Assembly: GCA_016186425.1 (NCBI GenBank)
Contig: JACPLR010000005.1
Location: forward strand, 27,312 to 59,311
DNA from: Candidatus Pacearchaeota archaeon
GTDB taxonomy: Archaea; Nanobdellota; Nanobdellia; Pacearchaeales; GW2011-AR1
Direction: 5' to 3'
DNA length: 32,000 nt
The position numbers were made by a program, and so were the translations under genes. The notes under the pieces are model-generated. The model was not told the origin of the DNA. It was given only the letters and a program-made list of their open reading frames with translations, and searched no databases. Positions 4,317-30,625 of the stretch are shown piece by piece; the stretch's first letter is position 1; each line of letters opens with the position of its first letter.

Positions 4317-4350
4317 ATTAAATTATGTAAAAATATGGCATATTTTCAAA
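4317..4350 (+). repeat. intergenic repeat family, X arm only (attaaattatgtaaaaatatggcatattttcaaa)
   Basis: Aligned by eye to the copies at 1127, 5145, 15179, 18465, 20454 and 29748. Confidence 0.7.
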
Positions 4351-4382
4351 CCTCAAATCCTTCTTATTCCCGCTCCTCAAAA

Positions 4383-4945: not shown

Positions 4946-4988
4946 ATTTTGATTGCTGGATTCATAAAAACCCGCTGGAGGTTTTTAT
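4946..4988 (-). repeat. repeat family copy: Y-start fragment plus hairpin ataaaaacc-cgctgga-ggtttttat
   Basis: The stretch ctggattcataa matches 30561-30572. The 9-bp stem hairpin lies at 4964-4988. The arrangement mirrors the reverse complement of 15270-15315. Confidence 0.5.
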
Positions 4989-5144
4989 TAATATTAACAG
5001 AATAAAACCTCTATTTATAAATATTTTTATAATAAGTTTTGAGCTAATCTATTCATAAAAAATAATAAATAATTATTGAGAGGATAAATTTTAGTATATA
5101 ACTTATGAAATATTAAATTATTTACATACTAATTAATAAACCTC

Positions 5145-5224
5145 GGTAACTTTCACATTAAAATCAGGCAAGAATATGGTATGTTTTCAAAACAATTTTG
5201 AAAATACTGCAATAATTTTACCTG
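5145..5224 (+). repeat. intergenic repeat family, complete palindromic copy (X arm + inverted arm ending ...ttttacctg)
   Basis: caggcaagaatatggtatgttttcaaaa / ttttgaaaatactgcaataattttacctg form an imperfect inverted repeat. The copy contains the exact 18-mer tttgaaaatactgcaata. Confidence 0.8.
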
Positions 5225-5320
5225 TTTTATTAGCTTGATATATTGCTCTTAGTAGTTTAACTAATTTTAACTCGTTCATCAAAGAAAAGTTTAATATTAA
5301 ATAATTTCAGAGATATTTTT

Positions 5321-8609: not shown

Positions 8610-8793
8610 ATTGGAAAATATCTATTGCAATATATAAATCTTATTATGCTAAATTGAAATATTCATTTTTCATCACTATAATTTGATAGCCTGATAGTGC
8701 TACTTGAAGTTGATGAATAAAATGAAGCCTATAAAATACTTCTTTTTATTAATTTAAAATAAGATTCAATTTAAAGACGATAAAATAATATTA

Positions 8794-9225
8794 TTAAAAA
8801 TAAAACTCATCAGATATTTCTGCAAAATCCATTTGCTCGTTTACTTTATTTTTTACAATTAAATCCATAAGTTTAAATGTTATTTGCTCTCTTGAAGGAA
8901 TAGGCAATCTTCTATATTTTTCATAAAGTATATTCTCCCATTCGCCTGGAATATAAATAGTTTCATTTAAGCATGGAAATTCATCATCTTGAATATAATC
9001 ATATTCAGCCTTGTAAACTAGGCTTCCATTGTATACTGCACTATTTTTATATGGGCCATCTTGATCACCCGAAGATCTTAAAACAAGACTATTAAATGTT
9101 AAATAAAAATCAAAATAAGAGAGATTAAACCATTCTCCATTAAAATTATCCCCATTTCTTTCAGGAAAACCATTTCCAAATTCAAAGCATAATGCTTCAA
9201 TCATGTAAGAAATATTTTCTTTCAT
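8794..9225 (-). CDS. hypothetical protein (143 aa)
   Basis: ORF with ordinary composition, no family recognised. Confidence 0.4.
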   Translation of the reverse strand: MKENISYMIEALCFEFGNGFPERNGDNFNGEWFNLSYFDFYLTFNSLVLRSSGDQDGPYKNSAVYNGSLVYKAEYDYIQDDEFPCLNETIYIPGEWENILYEKYRRLPIPSREQITFKLMDLIVKNKVNEQMDFAEISDEFYF

Positions 9226-9373
9226 AAAACAAGCAATTTTACCTATATTTTAAAATTAATTATACTCCATTTAGAATATAATTTACCATTATTAAGTTCA
9301 AATAAAAGTTTAAAATGTCTAAAATATTTTGATTAATATGTACAAAGAAAGTATTTGCTTCACGGGTTAATAA

Positions 9374-9601
9374 GCTCGTGAGGTTAAAATAGGAAATAAG
9401 TATATAAATAAATTCTGTGAGAAATGTAAAGAAGAAACTTGGCATAGAGTTTTTAAGAGATATGGAAAAGGAAGGGGAGAGAACAAGAAAAGCAAAAGAG
9501 GCAAAAGTGTAAAAAGAGAGGTTATTTGGTGTTTAACTTGCCAGAAAAGAGCAATAATAAAATCAAGAAGAAGTAAAGTAACCCGGGCAGATTTTAAATA
9601 A
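9374..9601 (+). CDS. basic zinc-ribbon open frame (CxxC...CxxC), possibly eL42/L44e-like, with no ATG/GTG/TTG start
   Basis: Hand translation gives AREVKIGNKYINKFCEKCKEETWHRVFKRYGKGRGENKKSKRGKSVKREVIWCLTCQKRAIIKSRRSKVTRADFK*. The frame is bounded upstream by TAA TAA. Confidence 0.3.
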   Translation, partial: AREVKIGNKYINKFCEKCKEETWHRVFKRYGKGRGENKKSKRGKSVKREVIWCLTCQKRAIIKSRRSKVTRADFK

Positions 9602-9675
9602 TTTTTATCTAACCGAAACCTTTAAATATTTACACATATTATAAATATTGATAAATAAATACACAAATAGTAAAA

Positions 9676-9906
9676 ATGACAACGATAACTCTTTCTATAC
9701 CAGAAGACCTTAAGAAAAGAATGGATAATTTTGAAGAAATAAACTGGAGTGCCGTAGCTAGGGAAGCATTTGCAGAAAAAATAAATGATATGGAATTTAT
9801 AAAAAGATTCAAAGAGAAGAGCAAAATAACTGAGGCTGATGCCTTAAGGCTTGGTAAAGAGGTTAGTAGAGGAATAAGTAATAGGCTGAAAAAAATGATG
9901 AGGTAA
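9676..9906 (+). CDS. antitoxin-like small protein (ribbon-helix-helix-like N-terminus)
   Basis: MTTITLSIPEDLKKRMD is an RHH-type beta-strand/helix start. Its stop lies 3 nt before the PIN gene. Confidence 0.55.
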   Translation: MTTITLSIPEDLKKRMDNFEEINWSAVAREAFAEKINDMEFIKRFKEKSKITEADALRLGKEVSRGISNRLKKMMR

Positions 9907-9909
9907 GTT

Positions 9910-10320
9910 ATGAATCTCATCATTGACGCCAATATTCTATTTTCAGCATTAATTAAAGATAACCTTAGCCATACTCTTTTGTTTAACGAAAAATTTCGCT
10001 TGTTCACGCCAGAATATATTTTTACAGAATTAGAAGAACATAAAGAAGAAATTCTTGATAAGACAGAAAGAACAACAGAAGAATTTTTTAAAATGATAGA
10101 AACTTTAAAGAGAAGAATCGTTATCGTTCCTTTAGAAGAATTAGTTCCTTATATTGAAGAAGCGGAAAATATAACTCTAGATACAGATGATATGGCATAT
10201 TTCGCACTTGCGTTAAAATTAAAATGCCCTATTTGGAGCAATGATAAGCATCTTAAGAATCAAGACAAAGTTATAATATATTCAACAGAGGATTTATTGA
10301 ATGTTTTAGGAGATTATTAA
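9910..10320 (+). CDS. PIN-domain protein (VapC-like toxin)
   Basis: IIDANILFSALI (first acidic residue), TELEEH, DTDDMAYFALAL, WSNDKHL. The spacing is typical of a PIN domain. Confidence 0.72.
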   Translation: MNLIIDANILFSALIKDNLSHTLLFNEKFRLFTPEYIFTELEEHKEEILDKTERTTEEFFKMIETLKRRIVIVPLEELVPYIEEAENITLDTDDMAYFALALKLKCPIWSNDKHLKNQDKVIIYSTEDLLNVLGDY

Positions 10321-10336
10321 TTAATTAGGTTCATTT

Positions 10337-10687
10337 TCAAAACATTACTTTCATCATCTCAGTATAACCCAATAAGCCTTCTTGAGTTGTAGGAAACTTT
10401 TCTAAATTAGGATTAAATTCATAATTCCTAAAAACTTCATTCATGCCTATAAAGGTAAAATATTCATTAATCTCTCTTAATATTTTAACAACATATCTTT
10501 TATTATTTCTATCATTTGAATTATCACTGTTTGCAAATATTAAATCTTGAATTAAATTGCCAATCATATAGCCAAAGTGGCATGTTCTTTTTAAACCAGC
10601 AGTTAATTCTACTTGCTCTTCAGTTTCTCTTATTTTATTAATAATATCTGATAATCTTTCATTAGTTAAAATATTCATTGAATTCAA
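10337..10687 (-). CDS. hypothetical protein (116 aa), third gene of the ImmA-like cassette
   Basis: ORF starting 21 nt downstream of 10709..10984. Confidence 0.4.
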   Translation of the reverse strand: MNSMNILTNERLSDIINKIRETEEQVELTAGLKRTCHFGYMIGNLIQDLIFANSDNSNDRNNKRYVVKILREINEYFTFIGMNEVFRNYEFNPNLEKFPTTQEGLLGYTEMMKVMF

Positions 10688-11121: not shown

Positions 11122-12165
11122 TTAATCCTTTGGAGTAGCTCTCACTAATAAATATTTTTCTGATTTAACAAAATCAAATTCTTCTTTAAATGCAACACAA
11201 TCGCACCTACACACCGTCTTTTCTCTTTTCCAGCCATTTTTTTTTCTTATAGTAAAAATACCTATATTTCTTCTATCTTGCTCTCCCAATTCAAGTTTAT
11301 CAAACCAATCCTCTAAAAAATAGTAATCTCCACCAAACTCTTTAGAAACCCGTTGTTGTTTAGCAGGAGTTTCGCGACGATAGGAATCAACAGGCTCATT
11401 AGGAAAATTAAGAAGCCTATAATTTCTACAAGGAGAGCTTTGATAAAGTATATATACGCTAGTACGAAACTTATCAGGATTAGAATCATTATACTCTTTT
11501 TTTTGATCAAGATAAAAAAATGATGAATTATTAAGAAATCCATTTAATCTGCCAATAATTGAGGCTACAGGAACTTTCTTTTCTTTTGAGAATGTGAGAA
11601 TATCTTGGTTTGAAACATGATCTAAATCCAATTCTCTAATTGTATTATCTGGCAAAATTAAGTTATTTGCAAAAACATCACAATAATTTTCATCATTTCT
11701 CAGACTATGTGTAATTTTTTTTCTTGCATTATGAATTCCACTATATGAAAGGTCCCTTAATAATTCTTGAGCATATAAAGCCTGTTTTAAATAATGCCCA
11801 AATTCATGGGCAATTGTAAAAGCCCCACCACCAGTTCTTAAAATATCAGTTGCTATTGAAATCTCCATCTTTCTAGGCTTAGATTCAGAAGCACCAATAG
11901 AACCATATACTAAACCATTATCCTCTTCAACAAATTCAATTTCTAAATAACCAAGTAATTTCTTTAATAATCCAACATTAAATTCCTTTCCTTGTGAAAC
12001 AAGTCTTGCCAATTCTCCTGCAGCCGGAAAAGGATCAATACTAAGCTGAGATAAAAAAGGAAAAACATGATAGCAAGGGGGGGCGTGCCTAAAATGGTTT
12101 AAAGATCTTAGACTAAACTTAAAACCATTTTTCGCTTCTATCTCAACTAATTTTCTTAATCCCAT
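11122..12165 (-). CDS. ImmA/IrrE-like zinc metallopeptidase (HEXXH) with a large C-terminal extension
   Basis: The motif FTIAHEFGHYLKQ is typical of the ImmA/IrrE (DUF955) family. The C-terminal ~200 aa are unassigned and contain CRCDC. Confidence 0.55.
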   Translation of the reverse strand: MGLRKLVEIEAKNGFKFSLRSLNHFRHAPPCYHVFPFLSQLSIDPFPAAGELARLVSQGKEFNVGLLKKLLGYLEIEFVEEDNGLVYGSIGASESKPRKMEISIATDILRTGGGAFTIAHEFGHYLKQALYAQELLRDLSYSGIHNARKKITHSLRNDENYCDVFANNLILPDNTIRELDLDHVSNQDILTFSKEKKVPVASIIGRLNGFLNNSSFFYLDQKKEYNDSNPDKFRTSVYILYQSSPCRNYRLLNFPNEPVDSYRRETPAKQQRVSKEFGGDYYFLEDWFDKLELGEQDRRNIGIFTIRKKNGWKREKTVCRCDCVAFKEEFDFVKSEKYLLVRATPKD

Positions 12166-14610: not shown

Positions 14611-15105
14611 TTAATCTCCGTTATATTCATAAGAAAGTTGATTATATTCTTCAGTATCATATGAGCAAATGCCTTTATCATGCCATAATACAAATTTATC
14701 AATTCCAACATCTAATGCTAATTTACTGCAATGTGTGCAATAGGGCATTCCAGCTTTCAATATTTTATTTTCTTGGCTAAGCCTTATGAAATATAAACTA
14801 GAACCAGATACTTCATGTGGATTTTTAGAAACAGCGTCTATTATTGCTCTTTGTTCAGCATGGATACAGCATGACTTATCTCCAACTTTATCATGATAAG
14901 AGATTTTATCAATTAAACATCTTCTTTGTGATTCACGATTTCCAGGAGGGGAGTTAAACCCTCTTCCAATTGTTCTTCTGCTTTCACTATCAACAACAAT
15001 TGAACCGCATTTGCTTCTTAAACATGTTGAGAATTTTGCAACTTCAAGAGCTTGCATCATGAATTTTTCAGCCAAGTTTTTTTTCTTGCCGATTAGGTAT
15101 ATCAT
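14611..15105 (-). CDS. dCMP/cytidine deaminase family zinc enzyme
   Basis: CIHAEQRAI (H-A-E) and PYCTHCSKL (P-C-x-x-C) zinc-binding motifs. Confidence 0.8.
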   Translation of the reverse strand: MIYLIGKKKNLAEKFMMQALEVAKFSTCLRSKCGSIVVDSESRRTIGRGFNSPPGNRESQRRCLIDKISYHDKVGDKSCCIHAEQRAIIDAVSKNPHEVSGSSLYFIRLSQENKILKAGMPYCTHCSKLALDVGIDKFVLWHDKGICSYDTEEYNQLSYEYNGD

Positions 15106-15178
15106 AAAAATATAAAATTTAACTGAATTTAAAGATTTATATTCTTGTACATATTAAATTAGAATTAAACTAAAACTA

Positions 15179-15340
15179 GGAACTTACTCTAATAAATCAG
15201 GTAAAAATATGTTATGTTTTCAGAACAATTTTGAAAATACTGCAATAAACAAATTTAAAGGAAAGTTTGATAAAGAAAACCATTGGTTGTCTTTATTTTG
15301 AATCTCTACAATACTAAATTTCTTATTTAAAGAAATTTAA
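15179..15340 (+). repeat. composite intergenic repeat: X arm + 18-mer arm + hairpin element + Y module with terminal hairpin
   Basis: The 15179-15247 part matches 29748-29816. The 15258-15299 part matches 17858-17900. The 15296-15340 part matches 20503-20550 and 29798-29845. Confidence 0.8.
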
Positions 15341-15421
15341 CCTATAATATTTTAAAATATAACAATGTTAAACCACTTAAGTTTAATTATCAGTCCTATG
15401 TATTTTCAGATTAAGTAAATA

Positions 15422-17585: not shown

Positions 17586-17825
17586 TTAATTTCTTGATTT
17601 TTTATATCTTATTTCATTTAAAACATTTGCTAAATATCCTATAAAGTATCTTTTAATCATCTCTCTATCTTCACCGCTGCTAATCATAATATGTCTAATA
17701 TAAGTCCCACAAGGAGGCTCTATACCTCCATAATTAAAAGATAAATTTGCTAGACTATCATATTCACTTGGCCTTCTAGTAGCTATTGTTCTATTTCTTA
17801 AATTTGGTCTTCCTTGTTTTTCCAT
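17586..17825 (-). CDS. hypothetical small protein (79 aa) between rps12 and rps7
   Basis: ORF track, no family recognised. Translationally coupled layout with the 54-aa ORF. Confidence 0.35.
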   Translation of the reverse strand: MEKQGRPNLRNRTIATRRPSEYDSLANLSFNYGGIEPPCGTYIRHIMISSGEDREMIKRYFIGYLANVLNEIRYKKSRN

Positions 17826-17857
17826 TTTTATATTTTTTATTTATTTGATTCATTTAA

Positions 17858-17900
17858 AAGGAAAGTTTGATAAAGAAAACCTTTGGTTGTCTTTATTTTT
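17858..17900 (-). repeat. stop-codon-abutting hairpin element (RNA sense: AUAAAGACAACC-AAA-GGUUUUCUUUAU followed by CAAACUUUCCUU)
   Basis: 12-bp stem with one conserved C.U mismatch at 17870-17896, 2 nt downstream of the rps12 stop (17899-17901). Near-identical copy at 15258-15299. Confidence 0.75.
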
Positions 17901-18385: not shown

Positions 18386-18417
18386 TTGTAACTAATATAT
18401 TTGAAAATACTGCAATA
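18386..18417 (+). repeat. short copy of the repeat family (ttgtaact + exact 18-mer tttgaaaatactgcaata, X arm missing)
   Basis: Compared with 29745-29816, the internal X arm appears to be deleted. Confidence 0.6.
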
Positions 18418-18464
18418 TTCTTACATAATTTATAATAGGTCATAAGTTATGTTAATAAATAAAT

Positions 18465-18614
18465 TAGTAGCTTAAGACGTATAAACCAGGTAAAAGTATG
18501 GCATGACTTCAGAAAAAGGAAAGGTAGTGTAGGAAAACCTTGGTTTTCAAACATAGCGGAGGTTTTTATTTTGAATCTATAACCTACTAAATTTTTCTAT
18601 GTAAAAAATTTAAA
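18465..18614 (+). repeat. composite repeat copy: X arm + palindrome gaaaacc-tt-ggttttc + ggaggtttttat + Y module
   Basis: Aligned by eye to 15179-15340. Confidence 0.7.
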
Positions 18615-18663
18615 ATAGTTTATTAGTTATTAAAGGTAAATTATTAATTTAATTTAAGATAAT

Positions 18664-18730
18664 CAGTAACTTGCTCATTAAAATTAGGTAGAGATGTGGA
18701 ATGATTAAAGAACTTTTTGAAATCACATAC
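18664..18730 (+). repeat. diverged copy of the repeat family (cagtaacttgctcattaaaattaggtagagatgtggaatgattaaagaactttttgaaatcacatac)
   Basis: Aligned by eye to 29748-29816. Confidence 0.6.
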
Positions 18731-18988: not shown

Positions 18989-20422
18989 ATGATAACAGAC
19001 AGGGCAAAAAAATATATTTCAGGAGGATTAGCTCCTTTGTTAATTTATACTTTATCTGGTTGCGCGACTTTTAGAAATTTTGGCAATGAATTTAAATCAT
19101 TCAGAACTGCAGCAGAAGACCCGGTTCATGAGGTTTTTAGAAATGATGAAAATAAAAATTTAGAGCCTCCAGCAGTGAATGAGGCGACTCAAAAACTCCA
19201 TAATGATGAATCAATGCACGCAATTGCTCATCCATATGTAATCGCAAATAATAATAGGGCATATTTTAAAGGAGAAGTTCCAGAAATAAACAATGGAACA
19301 TTTGCAATACCTTCTATTAATGCCACTTATATTGATTTAGATGGGAATAACGACGGCAAGGGCGATGTTTTAATTTCATATCGCTGCAGAAATGCTGCTC
19401 CAGATATTGCAGCTATTCTTGCTAAATACCTCCCGCCAGCTCCCGAAGTTGATATAACTCCTTATCTTTCTCAAAATATGCTGTTATTTCGGGGACAGGA
19501 TGTTAAATTCGGAGAAAATTTTGGCTTAATTTCAAAATTAATTAATAATTTCGATATAGATCCTAAACAAATAAGAATAAGGTTAAAAATAGTGGAGTAT
19601 TTTAATGATAATACCTATGACAGGGATATGGCCTTGAAAATTTTGAAAAATGGTATGAGTGCTTTTAACTTATTATTGCCAAGCAACCCCCAGGGCAATC
19701 CTTTAACAACTGGAATTTCTGTTGATCCATTCATCAACAAAGATAGGAACGGAGATTTTACAATCTGGGGAAGAGCGCCTAACAAATGGACATATGAGGG
19801 GGCAATAAAATTCCTTGACAGCCATGGAAGAACAGAAACACTGTCAGATACAGATGTTGTTGTTTCAAATGGAACAACTGCAGAATTTAGAAATGTTAAT
19901 GCAGTGCCATATCAGCAAACTTCTTTAACTCCTGCAGCAGCAATTGTTATAGGAACACAATACCGGGAAGTCGGCCCGCAATTAAAATTATCCCCCTTCA
20001 CAAATGAAAAAGGTTTTACAACAATAAAATTGCTTGAAGCAAAATCAGGAGAATCAATTGCCTTAGTAGGCAAGGAACAAATACCTGTGTTTAGGGAAGC
20101 AAATCTTACATCTGAATTTTGTTTGCGAAATGGAACAACATATCTTATAGGAACATCAACAAACACCAGATATAAATCTGTTAATAGGGGCATTCCTGGA
20201 TTGAATAAAATTCCTTTGGTTAGGGGTGCTACAACATCAAGAGAAATTGAGAAAAATACTTCTGAACTGCTTTATTTCATGGAAGTTTTTGATATAGAGA
20301 GACAAGATTCTGTTGGAATGCAGGAAAGAATACAAGAGCCTTCAATTGCAGAATTAAACTCTAATCCAGTTAAGAAAGAAAAAAGTGAAAATAAAGGATT
20401 TTTCAAAAGGCTAAAAAGATAG
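18989..20422 (+). CDS. secretin-domain protein with lipoprotein-type signal peptide (477 aa)
   Basis: The N-terminus LLIYTLSGC is lipobox-like. The C-terminal half matches recalled secretin (GspD/PilQ/pIV) hallmarks. These are QIRIRLKIVEYFNDNTYDRDMAL, LSDTDVVVSNGTTAEFRNVNAVPY, YREVGPQLKLSPF, LRNGTTYLIGTS and NRGIPGLNKIPLVRG...SELLYFMEV. Confidence 0.55.
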   Translation: MITDRAKKYISGGLAPLLIYTLSGCATFRNFGNEFKSFRTAAEDPVHEVFRNDENKNLEPPAVNEATQKLHNDESMHAIAHPYVIANNNRAYFKGEVPEINNGTFAIPSINATYIDLDGNNDGKGDVLISYRCRNAAPDIAAILAKYLPPAPEVDITPYLSQNMLLFRGQDVKFGENFGLISKLINNFDIDPKQIRIRLKIVEYFNDNTYDRDMALKILKNGMSAFNLLLPSNPQGNPLTTGISVDPFINKDRNGDFTIWGRAPNKWTYEGAIKFLDSHGRTETLSDTDVVVSNGTTAEFRNVNAVPYQQTSLTPAAAIVIGTQYREVGPQLKLSPFTNEKGFTTIKLLEAKSGESIALVGKEQIPVFREANLTSEFCLRNGTTYLIGTSTNTRYKSVNRGIPGLNKIPLVRGATTSREIEKNTSELLYFMEVFDIERQDSVGMQERIQEPSIAELNSNPVKKEKSENKGFFKRLKR

Positions 20423-20453
20423 TGAAATTCCATCTTTAAACTATAAAGACTAA

Positions 20454-20550
20454 CAGTTCAGACTAATAAATCACGTAAAGTTAATGTCATATTTTCAAAA
20501 TTATTCTTGAATCTCTACCATATTAAATTTCTCATTCGAGAGAAATTTAA
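20454..20550 (+). repeat. repeat family copy: X arm + Y module with hairpin aaatttctc-attcgag-agaaattt
   Basis: Aligned by eye to 15179-15340 and 29748-29845. Confidence 0.7.
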
Positions 20551-20675
20551 AATAATCTATAGTTGTTTAAATTGAACTCTTTAATATTAATGGAGTGATT
20601 TTAATTTGTATGCCTGATTTTTAAAACAAAATCGATAGAACAAGCTATTATTTTACCTTTTAATCTAAACTCTTT

Positions 20676-21119
20676 TTATTTCTCGTTCTCCTGCAGTTTC
20701 TTTATGACTTTTGCAGTTATATCTGTATATTTATCTGACCCCTTATCGCCTTTATCAACTACAATGTCATATCCGCCTTTTGCGGCAGATTCTACCAAGG
20801 CCTTATTAACACTAGTTAGCAATTGGCTTAAAACTCTATCTTTTCTAGTGTCATTTTCTTTCAATTTCGTTAATTCTTTGTAATACTTGCTCTCAGTTAA
20901 TGCCTTGCTATATTCTATATATGCCGGGTTTGCATATTTCGCATCTTTTTTTTCAACTCCATAACGAGTTACTGCTTCAGCTTTCTGCATATTGTCAAAT
21001 TGTACTCTTGGCCTATAACTTCCTTCGTCAAAAGAAACGCTTGGATAAATTCCAAAAACAGAACCAATTCCTACCGCGCTAGCAGTTAGAATATTTGCCA
21101 GCGATTTTCTTGATTTCAT
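20676..21119 (-). CDS. Skp/OmpH-like periplasmic chaperone homologue with signal peptide (147 aa)
   Basis: The N-terminal hydrophobic signal is LANILTASAVGIGSVFG. The C-terminus RVLSQLLTSVNKALVESAAKGGYDIVVDKGDKGSDKYTDITAKVIKKL follows the recalled OmpH/Skp C-terminal pattern (..AV..vA...g.DlVvD....y.....DIT..Vlk.l). Confidence 0.5.
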   Translation of the reverse strand: MKSRKSLANILTASAVGIGSVFGIYPSVSFDEGSYRPRVQFDNMQKAEAVTRYGVEKKDAKYANPAYIEYSKALTESKYYKELTKLKENDTRKDRVLSQLLTSVNKALVESAAKGGYDIVVDKGDKGSDKYTDITAKVIKKLQENEK

Positions 21120-21246
21120 TTATTTTCTTCTTTTTTATGTAAAAACTAATGGTTTTCTAATAAAAAATTAGGTAGTATATATTAATAACTATAAATAATT
21201 TTCCCACCACTTAAAAGTTATATCATTAAGAAGAATCTAGCATTTA

Positions 21247-21286
21247 AAGGAGGGGTTGATAAGGATAAACCCTTAGTTTCTTTTAT
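21247..21286 (-). repeat. degenerate copy of the stop-proximal element, 2 nt downstream of the nusA stop
   Basis: aaggaggggttgataaggataaacccttagtttcttttat aligns with aaggaaagtttgataaagaaaacc.ttggttgtctttat. The stem is poorly preserved. Confidence 0.4.
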
Positions 21287-21705: not shown

Positions 21706-21817
21706 TTTTTACTCTATCTTATTATGCTTTATTAATTTAAATGTTTATATGTTATTGCGCATTATTTATTAATTATCTCTTATATTGCTTAACTTAATTA
21801 AACTAGCTAATAAATTT

Positions 21818-21896
21818 ATTTAGTATTGTATGGATTCAAAATTGTTCTTGAATCACCTCCATACCTTTCCATAATTTTTACATTTATTCTACTTGA
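21818..21896 (-). repeat. repeat family copy in inverted orientation between nusA and rpoA
   Basis: The reverse complement reads gtaaaaattatgg...tgattcaagaacaattttgaatccatacaatactaaat. Confidence 0.6.
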
Positions 21897-21970: not shown

Positions 21971-24900
21971 TTACTTTTCCTTTTTCAGTGTCTTCCTGTC
22001 TTTTTCCCTCACTAAAGGCCCTGTAATTTTTACCATTAATCCAGGTAATCCAGTGCCAACAGGAACGGGCTGGTTAAGAATTATATTCTCAATGACACTT
22101 AACAATTCATCTTTTCCACCCTTAATTGTTGCATTAACAAAATGTTTTATAGGTGTTTCAAAACTTGCCTTAGCTAAGATACTGCTTTTTCTTGCAATTA
22201 TTCCCATTCTTGTCATCCCTCTTATCTCTCCATCAATTGTCATTGCATCAGCAACAAGCTTTAAGTGCCTTTCATCAATATCTAATCCCTGTGAACCAAG
22301 AACTTTTCTTATCTCATTCATTATAACCTGTCTTGCAGATTCAATTCCAAAAACATTTGCCATTTCATAAATATCATTTGTAATTGTTCTTTCAGGAGCA
22401 ACTCCCTTCACTTTTATTATCTCGGCAAGATTTGAGCCAGCTGTGAGTATTACATACCCTCTTTCTCTTTTAACAATTAAAACCTGCTTTATTCCTTTTA
22501 CTCCGGAAATTATGCTTTCCTTTAATTTTTCTTTAAGTTTGTATATTTCTTTAAAGCCAAGATCTGGAATACTTAAGATTATTGAATCATTTTTCACGCT
22601 TATTTTATATCCTTTTATTGCAATTTTTTCAGCAACAGTATTTATCGACATATGGGTGTGCCTTATTGCCTTGTTGTCTATTATAAATTCAATTTTTTTG
22701 TCAGAGAAATTTATTTTTGCCTCTGATAATATTTCTTTCAGCTTGGCTTCTTTTATTTTCTCTGCAAGAACCTTTGCGTCTTTTTCATCATTAAAATCTT
22801 TGTCTAAGTGAATTTCCATTGCAGGTGTTGACGGCATCTTTCTTGCATCAAATATTTCAATAAGCCGTGGAAGACCTAAAGTAACCTGCATTTCCTGAAC
22901 TCCGGCAAAATGAAATACATTCAAAACCATTTGTGTTGACGGCTCCCCAAAACTCTGTGCAGTAACAATTCCAATTGCTTCTCCAGGAGAAACTTCATTG
23001 TCAAAATGAGCTCCAGCAACATCAATTCCATCATCTCCATATTTAAATTGAATTATCTGGCCAACAGCATCTCTAACTGTCCCATCATACTCCACTCTCA
23101 AGTCCTGCAAAGCATTAGCAAGTCTTCTATATAAGTATCCTGATTTAGGTGTTCTTAGTGCAGTATCCATTAACCCATCTCTTCCTGAAATAGCATCAAA
23201 GAAAAATTCCTGCGGCTCCAACCCATTCATATAGGATGAATATACAAATCCATGAGCTTTTGGGGAAAGGTCATGCTGCTTGAAAGACGAAAGTGTTCTT
23301 TCATTATAGCCAAAATTAATCCTCTGAGACCACAAAGATTTCTGGCCGACAGAACACGCAATTTGAGTAATATTAAGGATATTTCCTCCAGCTCCAGACA
23401 TAATCATGTGATTTACAGGATTGTCTTCTGGAAATTCTGTTTTTACAGCCTTGCCTATTTTAGTTCTTATCTCATTTAATGTTTGAAGTATTTTAATTTC
23501 CCTTGATTCGTCAAGAGTTTTCCCAGGAATAATTTCAAGAGTTTCGTTATTGTAAGCATCAATTATTTCTTTTGTTTTTTCTTCACCGTCTTTTATTATG
23601 TCATAAGTTATTTTTTTTGTTTTTTCATTAACATTAATATCTTCAAGGGAAATAGTAAACCCTCTTCTTGAAAGATAATTTGTTCCAAGTGTAAAAGCTT
23701 TTTTTATTGCATCTATTGTTTCTTTTCTGCCAAGCTCCTTATCAACTTCTTTTGTGATTTTTTCATTTTCAACACCAAAAGTATATTCATGTGTTAAGTC
23801 TTTCTTTTCAATTTCTTGAGAAAGCGATTTGCTTATTGGAGGCAATATTTCCAAGAAAATATCCTTGCCATTAAAGGTTTTCTTGTCTTGTTTTATAATC
23901 ATTCCTGCATTAAAAAGAAGCTGTTGTGCTTCTGCTTTGTTTACATTGCTTAACCCTAAAAGATAATTCCCTGTGACAGCATCTGTAATTGTTCCTATTA
24001 ATGATGTATTATTTTTTGGGCTCATTAAGTTCTTGCTTACATCTAATAAAATTCTTGCTTCAGCCCTCGCTTCTTCAGTCTGAGGCACATGAACATTCAT
24101 TTCATCTCCATCAAAATCAGCATTATAGGGAAATACAACCGCCGGATGCAATCTAAATGTTCTGTAAGGAAGAACTTTTACATAATGCGCCATCAAGCTT
24201 CCTCTATGAAGTGAGGGATGTCGGTTAAATAATACAATATCTCCGTCCTGTAAATGCCTTTCAACAAAATATCCCGGCTTTAATTCTTCAATTATTTCTT
24301 TTTTAAGTTCAGGGGATATTTTCTTTCTTCTTCCATCAGGCCTTATAATATAATTTGCCCCCGGATAATGCTCTGACATTATCAGTTTTTTTAGATAATC
24401 AATATTAAGCGTTGTAACCTCTTCATTAACAGTAAGAACTTCTGCAATTTCATAAGGAACTCCAACTTCATTTATTTGTAATGAAGGATCTGGAGAAATA
24501 ACTGTTCTTGACGAGAAATTAACTCTTTTTCCAGCAAGATTATGCCTTATTCTTCCTTCTTTTCCTTTAATTCTTTCAGTAATTGTTTTTAGTGGCTGCC
24601 CGCTTCTGTGCCTGGCAGGTGGAATTCTTGATATAGTATTGTCAAAAAATGTTGTTACATGATATTGAAGCAAATCCCATAAATCATCAATAATAACTTC
24701 CGGAGCTCCTGCATTTAAATTTTCCCAAAGTCTTTGATTTGATCTTATTATATCTCCAAGCTTGTGAGTTAAGTCATCTTCGCTTCTCTCTCCAGATTCT
24801 AAAGTAATGCTTGGCCTTACAGTTACTGGAGGAACAAGCAAAACAGTAAGGATTCCCCATTCTGGCCTGAATGTTTCTGGATTAACTCCAATTAACCTGC

Positions 24901-25417
24901 AGTCATCATCTGTAATTTTTTCTAAAATTGCCCTTATTTCAGGAGGGAATATTCTTTTCTTTCCAAGCATGAATGATGTTGGTTTTTCAATCTTAATTTT
25001 TTCCTGAACAGTTTGGCAGTAATGGCATTTTTTAGCATCCTTTGATTTTTTCATTCTCTGTGCAGGGCTTAATTTCTTTATATTTTCCTCATCTAAAAGT
25101 ATTCTTCCGCAATTATTGCAAAAACTTCTTAAAAATGTGTAAACAATTGGAACATATTTTACATGCACAACAGGCCTTGCAAACTCAATGCTTCCTGGAT
25201 GCCCAAGGCATTCTTTTAATCTTCCTCCGCATGTTCTGCATTTTACTCCAGGATCAATAGCGCCAAGCCTCAAGTCCATTAATCCTCCATCTACCGGATA
25301 TCCATCCATATCATAAAGTTCTGGAGTGATTATCTTGGCACATGATATTTTTTTAATCTTCTCCGGGCTAAGCAGGCCAAATTTCAATGCTTTTATTTGT
25401 TTTTTTACAATTATCAT
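21971..25417 (-). CDS. rpoA: DNA-directed RNA polymerase largest subunit, A' and A'' fused in one 1148-aa ORF
   Basis: N-terminal zinc motif CRTCGGRLKECLGH, catalytic NADFDGDEMNVH, and bridge-helix region GRDGLMDTALRTPKSGYLYRRL. Then YGDDGIDVAGAHFDNEVSPGEAIGIVTAQSFGEPSTQMVLNVFHFAG (A''-type trigger loop) follows in the same frame. Confidence 0.93.
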   Translation of the reverse strand: MIIVKKQIKALKFGLLSPEKIKKISCAKIITPELYDMDGYPVDGGLMDLRLGAIDPGVKCRTCGGRLKECLGHPGSIEFARPVVHVKYVPIVYTFLRSFCNNCGRILLDEENIKKLSPAQRMKKSKDAKKCHYCQTVQEKIKIEKPTSFMLGKKRIFPPEIRAILEKITDDDCRLIGVNPETFRPEWGILTVLLVPPVTVRPSITLESGERSEDDLTHKLGDIIRSNQRLWENLNAGAPEVIIDDLWDLLQYHVTTFFDNTISRIPPARHRSGQPLKTITERIKGKEGRIRHNLAGKRVNFSSRTVISPDPSLQINEVGVPYEIAEVLTVNEEVTTLNIDYLKKLIMSEHYPGANYIIRPDGRRKKISPELKKEIIEELKPGYFVERHLQDGDIVLFNRHPSLHRGSLMAHYVKVLPYRTFRLHPAVVFPYNADFDGDEMNVHVPQTEEARAEARILLDVSKNLMSPKNNTSLIGTITDAVTGNYLLGLSNVNKAEAQQLLFNAGMIIKQDKKTFNGKDIFLEILPPISKSLSQEIEKKDLTHEYTFGVENEKITKEVDKELGRKETIDAIKKAFTLGTNYLSRRGFTISLEDINVNEKTKKITYDIIKDGEEKTKEIIDAYNNETLEIIPGKTLDESREIKILQTLNEIRTKIGKAVKTEFPEDNPVNHMIMSGAGGNILNITQIACSVGQKSLWSQRINFGYNERTLSSFKQHDLSPKAHGFVYSSYMNGLEPQEFFFDAISGRDGLMDTALRTPKSGYLYRRLANALQDLRVEYDGTVRDAVGQIIQFKYGDDGIDVAGAHFDNEVSPGEAIGIVTAQSFGEPSTQMVLNVFHFAGVQEMQVTLGLPRLIEIFDARKMPSTPAMEIHLDKDFNDEKDAKVLAEKIKEAKLKEILSEAKINFSDKKIEFIIDNKAIRHTHMSINTVAEKIAIKGYKISVKNDSIILSIPDLGFKEIYKLKEKLKESIISGVKGIKQVLIVKRERGYVILTAGSNLAEIIKVKGVAPERTITNDIYEMANVFGIESARQVIMNEIRKVLGSQGLDIDERHLKLVADAMTIDGEIRGMTRMGIIARKSSILAKASFETPIKHFVNATIKGGKDELLSVIENIILNQPVPVGTGLPGLMVKITGPLVREKDRKTLKKEK

Positions 25418-26117: not shown

Positions 26118-26160
26118 TCAGTAAGTTTTATTCCTTAAAGTATCTTTAACTCCCAGAGCT
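26077..26160. repeat. perfect 42-bp tandem duplication (2 x cagtaagttttattccttaaagtatctttaactcccagagct)
   Basis: The two copies, 26077-26118 and 26119-26160, are identical base for base. Confidence 0.97.
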
Positions 26161-29100
26161 CCGCACTTTGAGCAAACATGAATTATAACTTTGTCAGAAT
26201 CATATCTTTCCTTCAATAATAATGAAGCTCCGTGTGCAACTAATGCCTGCTGCTCCATTTCTCCTAATCTTAATGCCCCTCCTCTTGCTCTTCCCTCAAT
26301 AGGCTGTCTTGTAAGCAATGCAACTTTTCCAGATGCTCTTGCATGCATTTTATTGCTTACCATATATTTTAATTTCATATAATACATATCGCCAATGTAA
26401 ATTTTTGCTTCCATTTGTTTTCCCGTAATGCCATTATACATTGTTTCTTTTCCATCATACCTGAATCCCAAGTCTTTCAATTGATTTTCCATTTCCTCAA
26501 CATTAATTTTCTCAAAAGAAGTTCCGTTCATTATCTCGCCCTTCAGGCAGCCAATTTTTCCGCTAATTAATTCAAGCAAATAACCTACAGTCATTCTTCC
26601 AGGAATACCATGGGGATTGAAAATAACATCAGGTCTTATGCCTCTTGAAGTGAATGGAATGTTTTCTTCAGGCACAATAGCCCCGATAACTCCTTTCTGC
26701 CCGTGAGCTGTTGAAAATTTATCTCCTAATTCTGGAATTCTAAGATCTCTTGTTCTTACCTGAACAATTTTATTTCCTTCCTCATCTAAAGTTACAAAAA
26801 CTCCGTCTATAATTCCTTGCTCTTCCTGCCTTATGACAGAGCTGCTCTCTTTTTTAGCTCTTATATTAATATCTTTTGCTTCTGACAGGAATTTTGGAGG
26901 AGAAACTTTTCCAATTACAACCTCTCCAGCTTTCAAGCTCGCTTCGGGATAAACAATTCCATCATCTTCAAGATATCTGTAAGAATCCTCTGTCCTATAG
27001 CCAGCAATGTCTTTTGTTGGGATTATTATCTCATCAGCCAATCCCCCTGCATAATTTAACTCAACACTTGTGTAAGGCCTGAAAAAAGTGCTTCTTCCAA
27101 AACCTCTTTCAACACTTGATTTATTTACAACAATTGCATCTTCCATATTATATCCTTCATAAGTCATGACTGCAACAACAACATTCTGCCCAGATGGATA
27201 AACATTCATTGCATCATAAACAAAACTTCTTACAATTGGCTGTTGAGGATAGTGGAGTAAGCTTACATCTGTATCAACTCTTACAAGATAATTTGCAGCA
27301 TACAATCCAAGTCCTTGTTTCTGTGTCTTGCTTCCTCTAATTAATCTAGAAGACTGGTCATGATTTCCAAAACTTACTAAGCTTGTTATCGGGCCTAAAA
27401 ATGCAACCCGGTCAATTTCCATATGTGTATGTTCAGAATTTAATTCAGAATTATTCAGCGCAACAAAAGCATTTTCTTCTTCAGAAGCATCAATGTATTC
27501 AATTACTCCCTGTTTTATCAAATCATCCCACTTTAATTCGCCTTTTTTAATTTTCTCAATATGTTCTTCTCTTAATCTAGGAACTCTATTATCAGCAATT
27601 ACTAATGGCCTTAAAACTCTTCCAGTATCTCCGTATATAACTATTATTTTTAATTCAGTATTGTATCTTATGCTTAATTCTTCTGGAAATTTTTGCTGCC
27701 TTCTTTTTTCTCTTACTTCTGAAATAAATTTATTGTAATTGTCAACGGCCCCGATAAACATTCCGTTGAAAAATACATCAATGCCGCTAATTTCTTTGCT
27801 CAATCCTAATTTTTCAAGTTCTTTAATAATACTTTCCTCATCCATTATTAATCTTGAAGAAATTTTTGACATAATTGAAAGATTTTTTCTCAGCCCAATT
27901 TCTGTTCCTTCGGGAGTTTCAATAGGGCAGAACCTTCCAAAATGCGTTGGATGAAGTGTTCTCGCCATAAAATTTGTCTGTTCTCCTGGCAAAGTGCTGG
28001 AAACTTTTTGCAATTGAGAAACAATTGAAAGATAATTTGTCTTGTCCATATTTTGTGTTATGCCCTTTTTCTCTCCAATCCAGCTTCCTGTTGCAATTGC
28101 TGATTTTATTCTATGTGAGAATAAAGTTGATTTAGCAATTGTCTTGATGCTGTAAAATTTTTTTCTCTTTATTGTTTTTTGAAGGGAGTATTTTATATCC
28201 CTTACAAGGATGTTTAAATTTACCCTGAACAAGTCAGCAAGCAAATCCCCTGAAAGCCTGACACGCTTGTTTGCGTAATGGTCCTTGTCAACCTTGAGTT
28301 TAGGATTTTCCTTGAATATTAAAAATTGCCTTATTAATTTGCATATGGTAATTGCTTTGTCAATTCTTTTTTCCTTTTTTAATCCAATATGGGGAAGCAG
28401 ATAAGAATCAAGCCTTTGCTTTATCCTGTCAAGAATTTCTTTTTTAGTTCCCTGCACAGAAGTTTTTTCAGCAATGCTCATCATCGCTTCTTCAGAATTT
28501 GAAACTTTTGCAAATTCATAAAGGTTAACAATAACATTATCCGTCTCTTTTCCAATATATCTCGCAATATCCGCTTCTTTTAACATGCCAAGAGCTTTCA
28601 TTAAAATTATCGCAGGAATATTCTTGAATCTTGAAAATGAAACTTCAATTACCCCATCGCTTGATTCTGTAATAGTTATTGGAATTCTGTAAGCGCCTCT
28701 TGAAGAGAATAATCTTAAAGTTGGCTTGTCTTTAATATTTTCAATAAATGGCTGGTTGGCTGCAAGATCTTCTGTCATTATCATAATTCTCTCGTTTCCA
28801 TTAACAATAAAATAGCCTCCGGGGTCTTCAGGGTCCATATAATTATTTTCAAGTTCTTCTTTGCTCACCCCGCATAAGTTGCACGGCTTGCTCTTTACCA
28901 TTATCGGCATTCTCCCAATTTCAACTTCCTGATTTTCAATTTGCCCGTCTTGTTTTATTGATATTTCTAAAAATAAAGGGGCAGAATAGGTTAGGTTTCT
29001 TATTCTTGCTTCAGCGGGAGTCATTGGGGTTGTTGATCCATCTGATTCAATCACATTTGGCTTTTGGATTTTAATTTTTCCGAGCTTTATTTCAACCTCG

Positions 29101-29267
29101 TCCTGCTCAATATTTTCAGAAATTTCATCAACAATTTCCTGCATTCTTTTTTCTATAAAATTATTAAAAGAAGTCAGGTTAGATTCAACTAAAGAATTCT
29201 CTGAAAGATATTTCTGAATAACTATATGGTCATCATTCTTAAGTTTAAGTTGTATGCCTCTGCCCAT
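26118..29267 (-). CDS. rpoB: DNA-directed RNA polymerase subunit B (unsplit), terminated prematurely by TGA at the duplication junction
   Basis: Conserved RpoB blocks are present (GRFCPIETPEG, NMEDAIVVNKSS, HGQKGV, RPDVIFNPHGIPGRMTVG, GGALRLGEMEQQAL). It ends ..CSKCGALGVKDTLRNKTY*. Confidence 0.92.
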   Translation of the reverse strand: MGRGIQLKLKNDDHIVIQKYLSENSLVESNLTSFNNFIEKRMQEIVDEISENIEQDEVEIKLGKIKIQKPNVIESDGSTTPMTPAEARIRNLTYSAPLFLEISIKQDGQIENQEVEIGRMPIMVKSKPCNLCGVSKEELENNYMDPEDPGGYFIVNGNERIMIMTEDLAANQPFIENIKDKPTLRLFSSRGAYRIPITITESSDGVIEVSFSRFKNIPAIILMKALGMLKEADIARYIGKETDNVIVNLYEFAKVSNSEEAMMSIAEKTSVQGTKKEILDRIKQRLDSYLLPHIGLKKEKRIDKAITICKLIRQFLIFKENPKLKVDKDHYANKRVRLSGDLLADLFRVNLNILVRDIKYSLQKTIKRKKFYSIKTIAKSTLFSHRIKSAIATGSWIGEKKGITQNMDKTNYLSIVSQLQKVSSTLPGEQTNFMARTLHPTHFGRFCPIETPEGTEIGLRKNLSIMSKISSRLIMDEESIIKELEKLGLSKEISGIDVFFNGMFIGAVDNYNKFISEVREKRRQQKFPEELSIRYNTELKIIVIYGDTGRVLRPLVIADNRVPRLREEHIEKIKKGELKWDDLIKQGVIEYIDASEEENAFVALNNSELNSEHTHMEIDRVAFLGPITSLVSFGNHDQSSRLIRGSKTQKQGLGLYAANYLVRVDTDVSLLHYPQQPIVRSFVYDAMNVYPSGQNVVVAVMTYEGYNMEDAIVVNKSSVERGFGRSTFFRPYTSVELNYAGGLADEIIIPTKDIAGYRTEDSYRYLEDDGIVYPEASLKAGEVVIGKVSPPKFLSEAKDINIRAKKESSSVIRQEEQGIIDGVFVTLDEEGNKIVQVRTRDLRIPELGDKFSTAHGQKGVIGAIVPEENIPFTSRGIRPDVIFNPHGIPGRMTVGYLLELISGKIGCLKGEIMNGTSFEKINVEEMENQLKDLGFRYDGKETMYNGITGKQMEAKIYIGDMYYMKLKYMVSNKMHARASGKVALLTRQPIEGRARGGALRLGEMEQQALVAHGASLLLKERYDSDKVIIHVCSKCGALGVKDTLRNKTY

Positions 29268-29494: not shown

Positions 29495-29747
29495 ATTTAC
29501 AAATAATAGTTAATTTATTTAGGTTTAGGTTAGTTTAATAAGGGCATTTACAACTTTCCAATACTAAACATTATCAAAAATTGGTTTTTAAACCTTTCTA
29601 TTTTTTTGGAAAGGTTAAAATTCTTATTATAAGAATAGTGTTATTAATTAGTTAGGAAAATAAAAAGATTATAGATTAGTGGATTTTAGATATTTGTATA
29701 TAGCTTATAAAATATTTTAATCTCTAGATGATAATTAATAAAAATTT

Positions 29748-29845
29748 GTAACTTACTCATTAAAATCAGGTAAAAATATGGCATGATTTCAAAACATTTT
29801 TGAAAATACTGCAATACTAAATTTCTCTTTTTAGGAGAAATTTAA
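29748..29845 (+). repeat. archetypal full copy of the intergenic repeat family (leader gtaacttactcattaaaat + X arm + 18-mer arm + Y hairpin)
   Basis: gtaacttactcattaaaatcaggtaaaaatatggcatgatttcaaaacatttttgaaaatactgcaatactaaatttctctttttaggagaaattt. Confidence 0.85.
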
Positions 29846-29950
29846 TAGAGGTTTAAGTTAATTTTAGAATAATGATAGGTTTAATACCTTGTTATTTTTT
29901 TAGAATACTTTAAAAACATTATATTCTTTTTGAGCTACGAGATTATATAT

Positions 29951-29966
29951 AATGGACCCATAGCTC
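29951..29966 (+). repeat. 16-nt direct duplicate of the tRNA-Lys 5' end (atggacccatagctca)
   Basis: Identical to 30048-30063, 97 nt downstream. Confidence 0.9.
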
Positions 29967-30049
29967 AATAAGGGAAGTATCCCTTATGAACCCTCAAGCA
30001 TTGAGTAATTCATTTTCTTGAGATTCAACAACGCTATGATTCCATAGAT

Positions 30050-30204
30050 GGACCCATAGCTCAGCCTGGTTAGAGCACTGGCCTTTTAAGAATAAAGACA
30101 ACCTAGTGGTTTTCTTTATGAGTTTTCCCTTGAGAAAGCATCTCCCTTAAATAGGAAGAGAAAAAGAAAGCCAGGTGTCGGGGGTTCGAATCCCCCTGGG
30201 TCCA
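30050..30204 (+). tRNA. tRNA-Lys (anticodon UUU) with ~80-nt intron after position 37
   Basis: Hand fold gives acceptor GGACCCA/TGGGTCC (7/7), D arm GCTC-AGCCTGGTTA-GAGC, and anticodon stem CTGGC/GCCAG with loop CTTTTAA. The variable region is GTGTC, the T arm is GGGGG-TTCGAAT-CCCCC and the discriminator is A. The intron spans ~30089-30168. No CCA is encoded. Confidence 0.85.
30092..30119 (+). repeat. copy of the stop-proximal hairpin element inside the tRNA-Lys intron
   Basis: ataaagacaacc-tagt-ggttttctttat. Both 12-nt arms are identical to the transcribed-sense arms at 17870-17896 and 15270-15296. Confidence 0.85.
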
Positions 30205-30462: not shown

Positions 30463-30526
30463 TATTTTTAATTTATACTTATTTAATCAAGCCATTAAGA
30501 TTAACTTAATACTCTAATAAGGTAAT

Positions 30527-30625
30527 TTAAATTTCTTCTAAATAAGAAATTTAGTGTTGTCTGGATTCATAATATTTTTGAAAATACTGCAATACTTTTA
30601 CCTAGTTATATATTATACTCTCTAA
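30527..30625 (-). repeat. repeat family copy (Y hairpin aaatttctt-ctaaat-aagaaattt, then exact 18-mer arm ending ...cttttacctag)
   Basis: The reverse complement aligns with the X arm + Y module layout. It contains the exact tttgaaaatactgcaata on the + strand. Confidence 0.7.

Follow-up and report, generated by a model that had tools for sequence, protein, structure and literature searches.

Why should the intergenic spacers of one archaeal genome carry pieces of the same palindromic sequence over and over? The question is raised by positions 29,748 to 29,845 of a 32,000-nucleotide (nt) stretch of Candidatus Pacearchaeota archaeon DNA (assembly GCA_016186425.1, contig JACPLR010000005.1, positions 27,312 to 59,311), referred to here as the window. 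An earlier note on this DNA had described there one copy of a modular repeat family containing an exact 18-mer, TTTGAAAATACTGCAATA. The family is probably a set of lineage-specific, non-autonomous, non-coding palindromic mosaic repeats, similar to paired repetitive extragenic palindromic (REP) sequences that form hairpins (REPINs), bacterial interspersed mosaic elements (BIMEs) and MITEs (miniature inverted-repeat transposable elements), and some copies were possibly co-opted as 3'-end hairpins. The note had offered three candidates, namely a mobile element of MITE or REP type, a family of small RNA genes and a shared protein-binding or regulatory site; the first fits best, given the lineage-specific high copy number, the indifference to orientation, the polymorphism and the master-sequence pattern described below.

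Exact matching placed the 18-mer five times in the window, as previously counted, always on the + strand and at 5197, 15230, 18400, 29799 and 30577. Four of these positions had been given correctly; the fifth, 5187, was a 10-nt slip. Dinucleotide shuffling gave an expectation of 0.31 matches with up to three mismatches, and five were reached in 0 of 100 shuffles. The window has 6.1 kb of intergenic DNA, and family modules take up ~1,520 nt (25%) of it. Of the 19 spacers that measure 100 nt or more, 9 contain modules, as do 6 of the 7 that reach 250 nt or more. DPANN archaea are usually called streamlined, yet here one mosaic family makes up a quarter of the intergenic DNA and turns over between close relatives. 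Modules were located by repeat search and with nhmmer profiles of the half-unit and of two modules designated Y and Z (E-values down to 1e-29). All copies listed in the earlier note were recovered in this way except 4946-4988, which falls below the nhmmer threshold.

Outside the window, an exact-match scan in which each species was represented by one genome returned mostly single chance matches. The 18-mer was present in at least 13 separate stretches of Candidatus Pacearchaeota archaeon RIFCSPHIGHO2_02_FULL_31_29 (JAGVWP01). None of these overlaps the window, yet they have repeat modules in common with it at up to 100% identity. The window and 13 JAGVWP01 loci, ~125 kb together, served as the genome sample for family counts and for the search for a partner enzyme, and contain ~45 profile matches. 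In 95 unrelated loci with a chance 18-mer (707 kb), the profiles matched nothing outside the 18-mer core. Two relatives that are equally AT-rich and secretin-bearing, L111 and L114, have repeats at chance level and no such family. Because neither the shuffles, the unrelated loci nor the AT-rich relatives show such repeats, chance and AT-rich background are ruled out and the family is taken as real and lineage-specific. The profile scan of related sequences that the note had proposed thus found the family enriched and confined to one lineage. In the window and JAGVWP01 combined, 19 copies of the 18-mer are exact, and 4, 3 and 3 copies carry one, two and three mismatches. This spectrum has the pattern of a master sequence, with the 18-mer apparently the current 'master' arm variant.

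Comparison of the 19 18-mer copies and the ~45 profile matches showed that the basic unit is a half-element of ~50 nt in which a leader (TCAGTAACTTWCACATTAAAAT) is followed by a closing stem (YAGGYAAAG) and then by an arm (TATNGYRKNATTTCARAA). In a full element two such half-units stand in opposite orientations, giving AAAATYAGG-arm-loop-arm-CCTRATTT(T), and either strand of it reads as an imperfect hairpin of 60-110 nt followed by a T-run. The parts originally named (leader, X arm, inverted arm and Y hairpin) are present as described. Their relationship needs revision, since the X and 18-mer arms are variants of one arm, and it is the whole that forms an inverted pair of half-units. Arm a (TATGGYATGATTTCAGAA), the former X arm, and arm c (TATTGTAGAGATTCAAAA) are variable; arm b, the reverse complement of the 18-mer, is nearly invariant. 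The 18-mer itself is invariant and has sharp edges, beyond which the sequence changes from copy to copy. Most leaders start with GTAAC, a minority with GTAGC or GTGGC, and in L060, L064 and L028 pairing extends as terminal inverted repeats to the outer leader (TCAGTAAC.../...GTTACTGA). Solo half-units are common, and in L060 the 18-mer occupies the opposite arm relative to the leader, as in a flipped copy. The Y module, an accessory hairpin (AAATTTYTC-loop-GARAAATTT), is placed before or after the main hairpin. The Z module is 41 nt long, has the core ATAAAGA-N-AACC-loop-GGTT-N-TCTTTAT, is foldable on both strands, is 97-100% identical between loci and is nested within two of the elements below, B and D. 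Elements measure 50-175 nt and, on inspection of the reading frames by eye, contain no conserved open reading frame (ORF); the a-arm ATG lacks conservation, and stops interrupt the frames downstream of it.

The copy that raised the question, element C, has the order leader, a arm, 18-mer, Y. In its left half-unit (29744-29794, +; nhmmer half-unit E=1.7e-13), GTAACTTACTCATTAAAAT (29748-29766) serves as leader, CAGGTAAAAA (29767-29776) as closing stem and TATGGCATGATTTCAAAAC (29777-29795) as a-type arm. The a arm pairs with the b-type arm, the invariant 18-mer, an exact match at 29799-29816 (+; fold z=-3.35 for 29760-29848). The Y hairpin, AAATTTCTC-loop-GAGAAATTT, was recognised by the Y profile at 29816-29845.

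A close relative shows that the repeats turn over. Locus L110, which was found by a metagenome scan with the window's secretin (87% amino-acid identity), is syntenic with the window; the genes of the two are 88% identical in nucleotides overall and 65% at 4-fold degenerate sites. Pairwise alignment and blastn synteny showed that a segment of ~199 nt bearing element C (29697-29895) is missing from the L110 spacer between rpoH and the tRNA gene. The L110 orthologue of element B is without a 66-nt block that contains the 18-mer and Z and is bordered on both sides by TTTTGAA in the window. Modules are rearranged or inverted in the L110 spacers between S12 and the secretin and between the secretin and OmpH. 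Presence/absence and rearrangement polymorphism was found where the note had suggested looking for it, in the orthologous spacers of a relative. The family offers strain-typing markers for Pacearchaeota populations. Element J is orthologous in both, and so are the Z modules that follow S12 and NusA. Element J is decaying by deletion, which has removed its Y hairpin, in part, from the window copy. In L110, Z modules also abut the EF2 and rpoB stop codons, and each of the three b-type arms has the sequence TCTGAAAATATTGCAATA or TCTGAAAATATTACAATA, a lineage 'dialect' of the 18-mer.

The placement of copies was examined relative to the neighboring genes. Among all sequences, the 18-mer lies five times in sense and five times in antisense orientation in tandem spacers, three times in convergent spacers and three times in divergent ones. 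Of the 22 half-units in tandem spacers, 13 are antisense and 9 sense; a further 11 lie in convergent spacers and 6 in divergent ones. Of these three spacer types, the baseline contains 60, 15 and 20. There is no orientation bias, tandem and convergent spacers are favored and divergent spacers are depleted. The claim that the 18-mer always lies on the + strand holds inside the window, because nearly all of the window's genes lie on one strand, but fails in the JAGVWP01 stretches, where both strands and both gene orientations are represented. Bacterial REPs have a spacer distribution of the same type, mainly tandem and convergent and rarely divergent (PMC3733652).

Likeness to REPs extends further. 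REPINs were discovered as over-represented exact 16-mers forming inverted doublets (PMC3116915). The present family likewise consists of short imperfect palindromes, in high copy and only in intergenic DNA, with an inverted doublet that forms one long hairpin as the putative replicating form and with frequent solo halves. An over-represented exact oligomer with a master-sequence spectrum is a further common feature (PMC3116915), as are lineage-specific sequence types, the preference for tandem and convergent spacers and G.T pairs in the stems (PMC3733652). The family differs in being archaeal and very AT-rich and in having half-units of ~50 nt, compared with 20-40 nt for REPs. It has no consistent GTAG/CGTC tag, its leader being GTAAC and in a minority GTAGC, and the REP tag itself tolerates some degeneracy (PMC3733652). 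No REP-associated tyrosine transposase (RAYT) was found in the ~125 kb, where the only Y1 gene scores as IS200.

BIMEs are also mosaics of palindrome variants in alternating orientation with extra motifs. Their Y, Z1 and Z2 units and their S, L, s, l and r motifs are comparable to the a, b and c arms, the leader and the Y and Z modules described here. There is no sequence relationship, however, and the host is archaeal. The functional classes of BIMEs are defined by binding of IHF, gyrase or Pol I. Archaeal MITEs include the SM elements of Sulfolobus and the haloarchaeal palindrome-associated transposable elements (PATEs), derived from IS200/IS605. Like MITEs, the elements are small (<600 bp), non-coding, multi-copy and intergenic, with long inverted repeats and presence/absence polymorphism. 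According to an automated survey, MITEs are very dense in some DPANN genomes, with 105 per Mb in one Woesearchaea genome (PMC11602168), and the family is for this reason one of a known kind. It differs from MITEs in that no parental insertion sequence (IS) with matching ends was found in the ~125 kb and no target-site duplication was defined, and in that its modules recombine freely instead of moving as one bounded unit. Because no partner was found and no target duplication defined, the family was not filed as a REP-RAYT system or as a strict MITE. Correia (NEMIS), ERIC, BOX and RPE-type repeats are transcribed imperfect palindromes of 100-150 nt or modular sequences (boxA-boxB-boxC) in untranslated regions (UTRs), and they can affect termination, processing or stability. 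Their sequences are unrelated to those found here, and features such as TA duplication, IHF sites or RNase III cleavage define those families.

Under the preferred reading of a palindromic mosaic repeat, the modules would spread and reshuffle at the DNA level within intergenic spacers, through a putative trans-acting enzyme or through hairpin- or microhomology-mediated recombination or gene conversion. They would persist where they are harmless, between the 3' end of a gene and the next promoter. Once transcribed in flanking UTRs, they would fold into a hairpin plus U-run on either strand, and some may have been co-opted as 3'-end or termination hairpins. Such co-option is plausible, especially for Z modules abutting stop codons, of which those at the S12 and NusA stops would be the clearest candidates. 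The family thus provides a sequence-defined case for asking how small non-autonomous archaeal repeats spread without an obvious transposase.

Folding was assessed for individual copies and for alignments. Individual copies are far more stable than shuffled sequences (z-scores between -3 and -7.8), and the 18-mer strand is the better-folding one in 11 of 13 copies. In an 11-copy alignment of the main hairpin, 79% of cells pair, compared to 40-47% when the partners are slid. Covariation in this alignment does not exceed that of column shuffles, so no conserved RNA helix is claimed.

Several observations weigh against the mobile-repeat reading. An invariant 18-mer amid variable flanks is not predicted by copy-and-paste of whole elements. 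Among the non-Watson-Crick cells of the inner helices, 26 are G.U on the 18-mer strand and two are A.C, an asymmetry that the outer stem does not have (10 vs 8). This one-strand excess hints at a single-strand (RNA) constraint and, together with the invariance of the 18-mer, keeps open a putative trans-acting factor that recognises the 18-mer. The observation that mismatches are uncompensated, made in the earlier note, is essentially correct for the main hairpin, where covariation does not rise above that of shuffles, but not throughout: besides the G.U excess, copy L064 has three fully compensated pairs in its outer stem (CAGGTGGAG/CTCCACCTG), and the Y hairpin has two compensated pairs among 21 copies (T-A 13 with C-G 7; C-G 15 with T-A 3). 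The retained left half of element B is 94% identical between the window and L110, compared to 65% at 4-fold sites. The distant relative L111, otherwise without the family, has one a-type half-unit (L111:1640-1700; TTAGGCAAAAATATGGTGTG, 2 mismatches in 20) directly after a stop codon and 110 nt upstream of a gene that is orthologous, with 60% amino-acid identity, to the window gene at 4383-4928; this half may be an ancestral, pre-expansion copy. The highly conserved retained orthologues and the L111 half therefore suggest that the family is older than its expansion. Because the element ends are fuzzy, a target-site duplication could not be delimited. Of the two sites with a clean presence/absence contrast to L110, one is flanked by TTTTGAA on both sides and the other has no clear duplication; because TTTTGAA itself belongs to the arm, microhomology is as likely as target duplication. 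Finally, no partner transposase was found in the window and the 13 JAGVWP01 loci.

The search for a partner began with a scan of 96 ORFs from related loci. A DDE transposase (PF13751/PF01609) at L028:1-1156 (JAGVWP010000021.1), cut by the contig edge and apparently a second IS type in the genome, was ruled out as parent because its end sequence is unrelated. An IS200/IS605-type element at L064:2422-3035 (JAGVWP010000011.1, at the contig end) encodes a 155-residue Y1 transposase (gene L064:2476-2943) with the HUH motif H-I-Q (PEHIQG). The protein scores 77 bits with NF033573 (IS200) and 20 bits with REP_Tyr_transpos, under the cut-off of 80. Its gene lies 126 nt from the best family hairpin, and the IS boundary at L064:2422 lies 72 nt from the repeat. 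The element has its own end hairpins, CTGAAGCTTGAAAGCTTCAG and GTGAGCTGAAACAAGCTCAC, which are richer in G+C than the family hairpins and unrelated to them. Hundreds of homologues of 68-92% identity occur on ~1-kb contigs from groundwater metagenomes, as is typical of an ordinary multicopy IS; a few of them carry the annotation Nanoarchaeota or Pacearchaeota. Seven loci with such homologues contain no family module. Its own end hairpins, the 72-nt gap and the module-free homologue loci rule out a REP-RAYT or PATE link to this gene. A small ORF between two inverted 18-mers in L033 encodes a small membrane-anchored protein without a family match and was likewise set aside as a partner.

Could the elements instead be primarily cis-acting RNA, that is, bidirectional 3'-end hairpins (terminators or 3'-exonuclease stabilisers) selected for that role and not selfish? 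The sequence AAAATYAGG...hairpin...CCTRATTT(T) reads the same way on both strands, so that a U-run follows the hairpin in either direction. Most copies lie just beyond a stop codon, and Z modules abut the stops of S12 and NusA in the window and L110 and of EF2 and rpoB in L110; read on the - strand, the Z module at 17853-17898 gives a hairpin and then CCUUUU in the S12 3' UTR. The G.U excess on one strand, the compensated pairs in the Y hairpin, the conservation of orthologous copies above 4-fold sites and the enrichment of half-units in convergent and tandem spacers are also in keeping with such a role. However, copies are also present in divergent spacers and at places far from any 3' end, which bears out the earlier judgement that a pure terminator role does not fit. 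Ten of the 19 window spacers of at least 100 nt, and most short spacers, do without copies. Oligo-U tracts are sufficient for termination in archaea and are already present at ordinary genes of the window, and a terminator does not require an invariant 18-mer. The same spacer gains, loses and rearranges copies between close relatives, and distant relatives do without the family. A scan for bacterial-type terminators flagged no family copy, which is weak evidence, as the scan needs G+C-rich stems. We regard a primary role as cis-acting RNA as unlikely.

Also doubtful, and to about the same degree, is an archaeal counterpart of the REPIN 'replicator plus keeper' arrangement, in which a putative non-RAYT factor would recognise the 18-nt arm in the hairpin on one strand and modules would seed tRNA introns. 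Such a factor would keep the arm invariant within a lineage while dialects drift between lineages. If a dedicated partner factor exists, REPIN-like systems would extend beyond bacteria.

A related proposal, which we judge quite improbable, makes the 18-mer (perhaps also Z) a putative recognition site for a trans-acting host factor, either a DNA- or RNA-binding protein or a guide RNA, and thus a selected genome-wide signal to which the palindrome is secondary. Binding by such a factor would explain the sharp edges of an invariant unit amid varying flanks. The peaked variant spectrum (19 exact, then 4, 3 and 3), the dialects, with TCTGAAAATATTGCAATA three times in L110, the several unrelated 5' arms that all pair with the 18-mer and the 97-100% identity of the 41-nt Z module between loci would be accounted for as well. 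No candidate factor was found in the window and the 13 JAGVWP01 loci, however, decayed 18-mer copies exist, and many spacers and all coding DNA are without copies. Moreover, the master-copy dynamics of a mobile repeat yield the same peaked spectrum and dialects.

More remote is a role of the 18-mer as a genome-wide self-marker, for example an uptake signal, in a secretin-bearing symbiont. The DNA uptake sequences (DUS) of Neisseriaceae and uptake signal sequences (USS) of Pasteurellaceae are likewise exact high-copy oligomers, often in inverted pairs behind genes and with 'dialects', a matter of resemblance only, and the genome also encodes archaeal type IV pilin-like proteins in addition to the secretin. 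The 18-mer differs in being rarer (~1 per 6 kb), wholly intergenic and embedded in a larger repeat.

Multicopy small RNA genes, in which a promoter in the X arm (a TATA-like TAAAAATAT) would drive an RNA made of the 18-mer and the Y hairpin, were the second candidate of the earlier note and are very improbable. An AT-rich TATA-like box does lie ~25 nt before the 18-mer in copies with an a arm, stable hairpins follow, and the 18-mer strand folds better in most copies. However, what lies before the 18-mer varies among no fewer than four unrelated types (a arm, c'-type arm, Z module, 3' end of an ORF), the X arm being upstream of only about half of the 18-mers, and the module downstream varies too, with the Y hairpin after only some copies. 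With no common upstream sequence there is no shared promoter. The box is also unlike the promoters of the window's genes, which have TTTATAAA-type boxes 25-35 nt upstream of start codons, and these two points argue against a promoter-driven gene family. A start at the 18-mer would leave out the left arm and hence the conserved hairpin, there is no Rfam match, and positions differ between relatives.

Other explanations were dismissed more briefly. Ordinary promoters or Shine-Dalgarno-plus-ATG leaders are excluded by the TTTATAAA-type boxes of genuine promoters, the non-conserved a-arm ATG and the stops in its frames. Known RNA families are excluded by an Rfam search at gathering score and at E<=1, in which the family was unmatched; only tRNA reached gathering score, and the sole other match at E<=1 was a spurious one inside the EF2 gene. 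Literature searches returned no description of this repeat family, in agreement with the initial impression that it is not a described one. A viral origin gained no support: IMG/VR yielded six single 18-mer matches, of which five fit the profile only around the 18-mer (the core alone or with a few adjacent bases) and one not at all. Integron attC-like sites, considered since gene insertions or deletions flank element B, were dropped because orientations are inconsistent and other such differences occur without elements.

The remaining copies in the window illustrate how the mosaic is assembled. Element A (5085-5257, +) is a full copy with a covariance-model score of 92.5 bits and a fold z of -4.43; its half-unit (5143-5192) and 18-mer (5197-5214) are followed by the closing sequence ATTTTACCTG (5215-5224) and a T-run, and its 60-nt upstream extension is common to elements A and C. 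Element B (15168-15342, +; repeat and nhmmer profiles) has a half-unit at 15177-15226, the 18-mer at 15230-15247, the nested Z at 15254-15298, a c-type arm at ~15296-15314 and Y at 15312-15342. A solo right half (18386-18434, +; exact match and profiles), with the 18-mer at 18400-18417 and a degenerate closing stem, precedes element D (18463-18615, +; repeat search and nhmmer), in which a half-unit (18463-18514) is joined to a Z-like insert, a c-type arm and Y (18585-18615). Element E (18662-18730, +; nhmmer E=7.9e-13) combines a half-unit with a degenerate opposing arm. In the convergent spacer between the secretin and OmpH-like genes, element F (20446-20562, +) has a degenerate half-unit, a c-type arm and Y (20521-20552). 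Element J (21804-21896), between rpoA and NusA, is the old c-type hairpin orthologous in L110, with Y partly deleted in the window. Element G (30515-30625, +) has the class II order, with Y (30526-30556) before a c'-type arm, the 18-mer (30577-30594) and the closing sequence CTTTTACCTAG.

Smaller pieces were also recognised. Two tandem half-units (1078-1172, +; E=5e-11), the second at 1123-1172, lie 9 nt beyond the DnaG stop codon, and a partial half-unit consisting of an a arm is found at 4307-4351 (+; E=9e-4). The weak member at 4946-4988 (+), below the nhmmer threshold, was read from the sequence as a fragment resembling a c'-type arm (TGCTGGATTCATAAAA). The Z module abutting the S12 stop codon (17853-17898, +) is supported by nhmmer (E=1.3e-15), folding and alignment, and a diverged one (21243-21282, +; E=0.046) abuts the stop codon of the NusA-like gene; both are orthologous in L110.

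A further Z hairpin (30091-30130, -; Z' on the + strand) lies within a tRNA gene. This tRNA, at 30050-30204 (+), has a long insert and was detected by Rfam and missed by ARAGORN; its anticodon loop, CTTTTAA, identifies it by eye as Lys-UUU. The insert of ~78 nt (~30091-30168) occupies the canonical 37/38 intron position and is missing from the L110 orthologue. Its first 30-40 nt are the Z-module hairpin (nhmmer E=5.8e-6; blastn 93% over 29 nt; also alignment and fold). The most unusual side result of the analysis is this tie between the Z module and a tRNA-Lys intron of apparently recent gain, as it would connect an intergenic repeat module with the gain of an intron. As a separate observation, 16 nt of the tRNA 5' end (ATGGACCCATAGCTCA) are duplicated directly, at 29951-29966 and 30048-30063, with ~80 nt of unique sequence between them; the 16-nt sequence is single-copy in L110. 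In the Caldiarchaeum model (PMC3293823), integration at tRNA genes leaves direct repeats of tRNA fragments, which this duplication resembles.

The window itself has a G+C content of ~30% and contains an archaeal information-processing cluster, almost all on the - strand, in the order rpoH-rpoB-rpoA-NusA-S12-S7-EF2-EF1a. The rpoH position is a 73-residue ORF whose name comes only from the label in the earlier note. RpoB is encoded at 26118-29267. RNA polymerase subunit A is split into A' and A'' in most archaea; here it appears to be fused, because Rpb1 domains 1-5 are all in a single ORF of 1148 residues (21971-25417, -). The other members of the cluster are a NusA-like KH protein, S12, S7, EF2 and EF1-alpha. 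The window also encodes a DnaG-type Toprim protein, a dUTPase, MsrA, a dCMP deaminase and a PIN protein. A look-up of msrA in search of polymorphism returned an identical 960-nt contig as its sole match.

Gene content turns over alongside the repeats. The window genes missing from L110 are the dCMP deaminase, an ORF of 347 residues (weak IrrE/M78 match), an ORF of 79 residues and the PIN-toxin region, and the window-only regions are 14611-15105, 11122-12165, 17586-17825 and ~8727-10340. L110 in turn has an ORF of 261 residues adjoining element B that is absent from the window. Between the S12 and NusA genes lie a bacterial-type secretin (18989-20422, +; PF00263 E=1.4e-18), unexpected in an archaeal genome, and an OmpH/Skp-like protein (20676-21119, -; weak match). 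Contamination is unlikely, because homologues of 36-87% identity are present on seven metagenome contigs, among them one of 304 kb and the syntenic L110.

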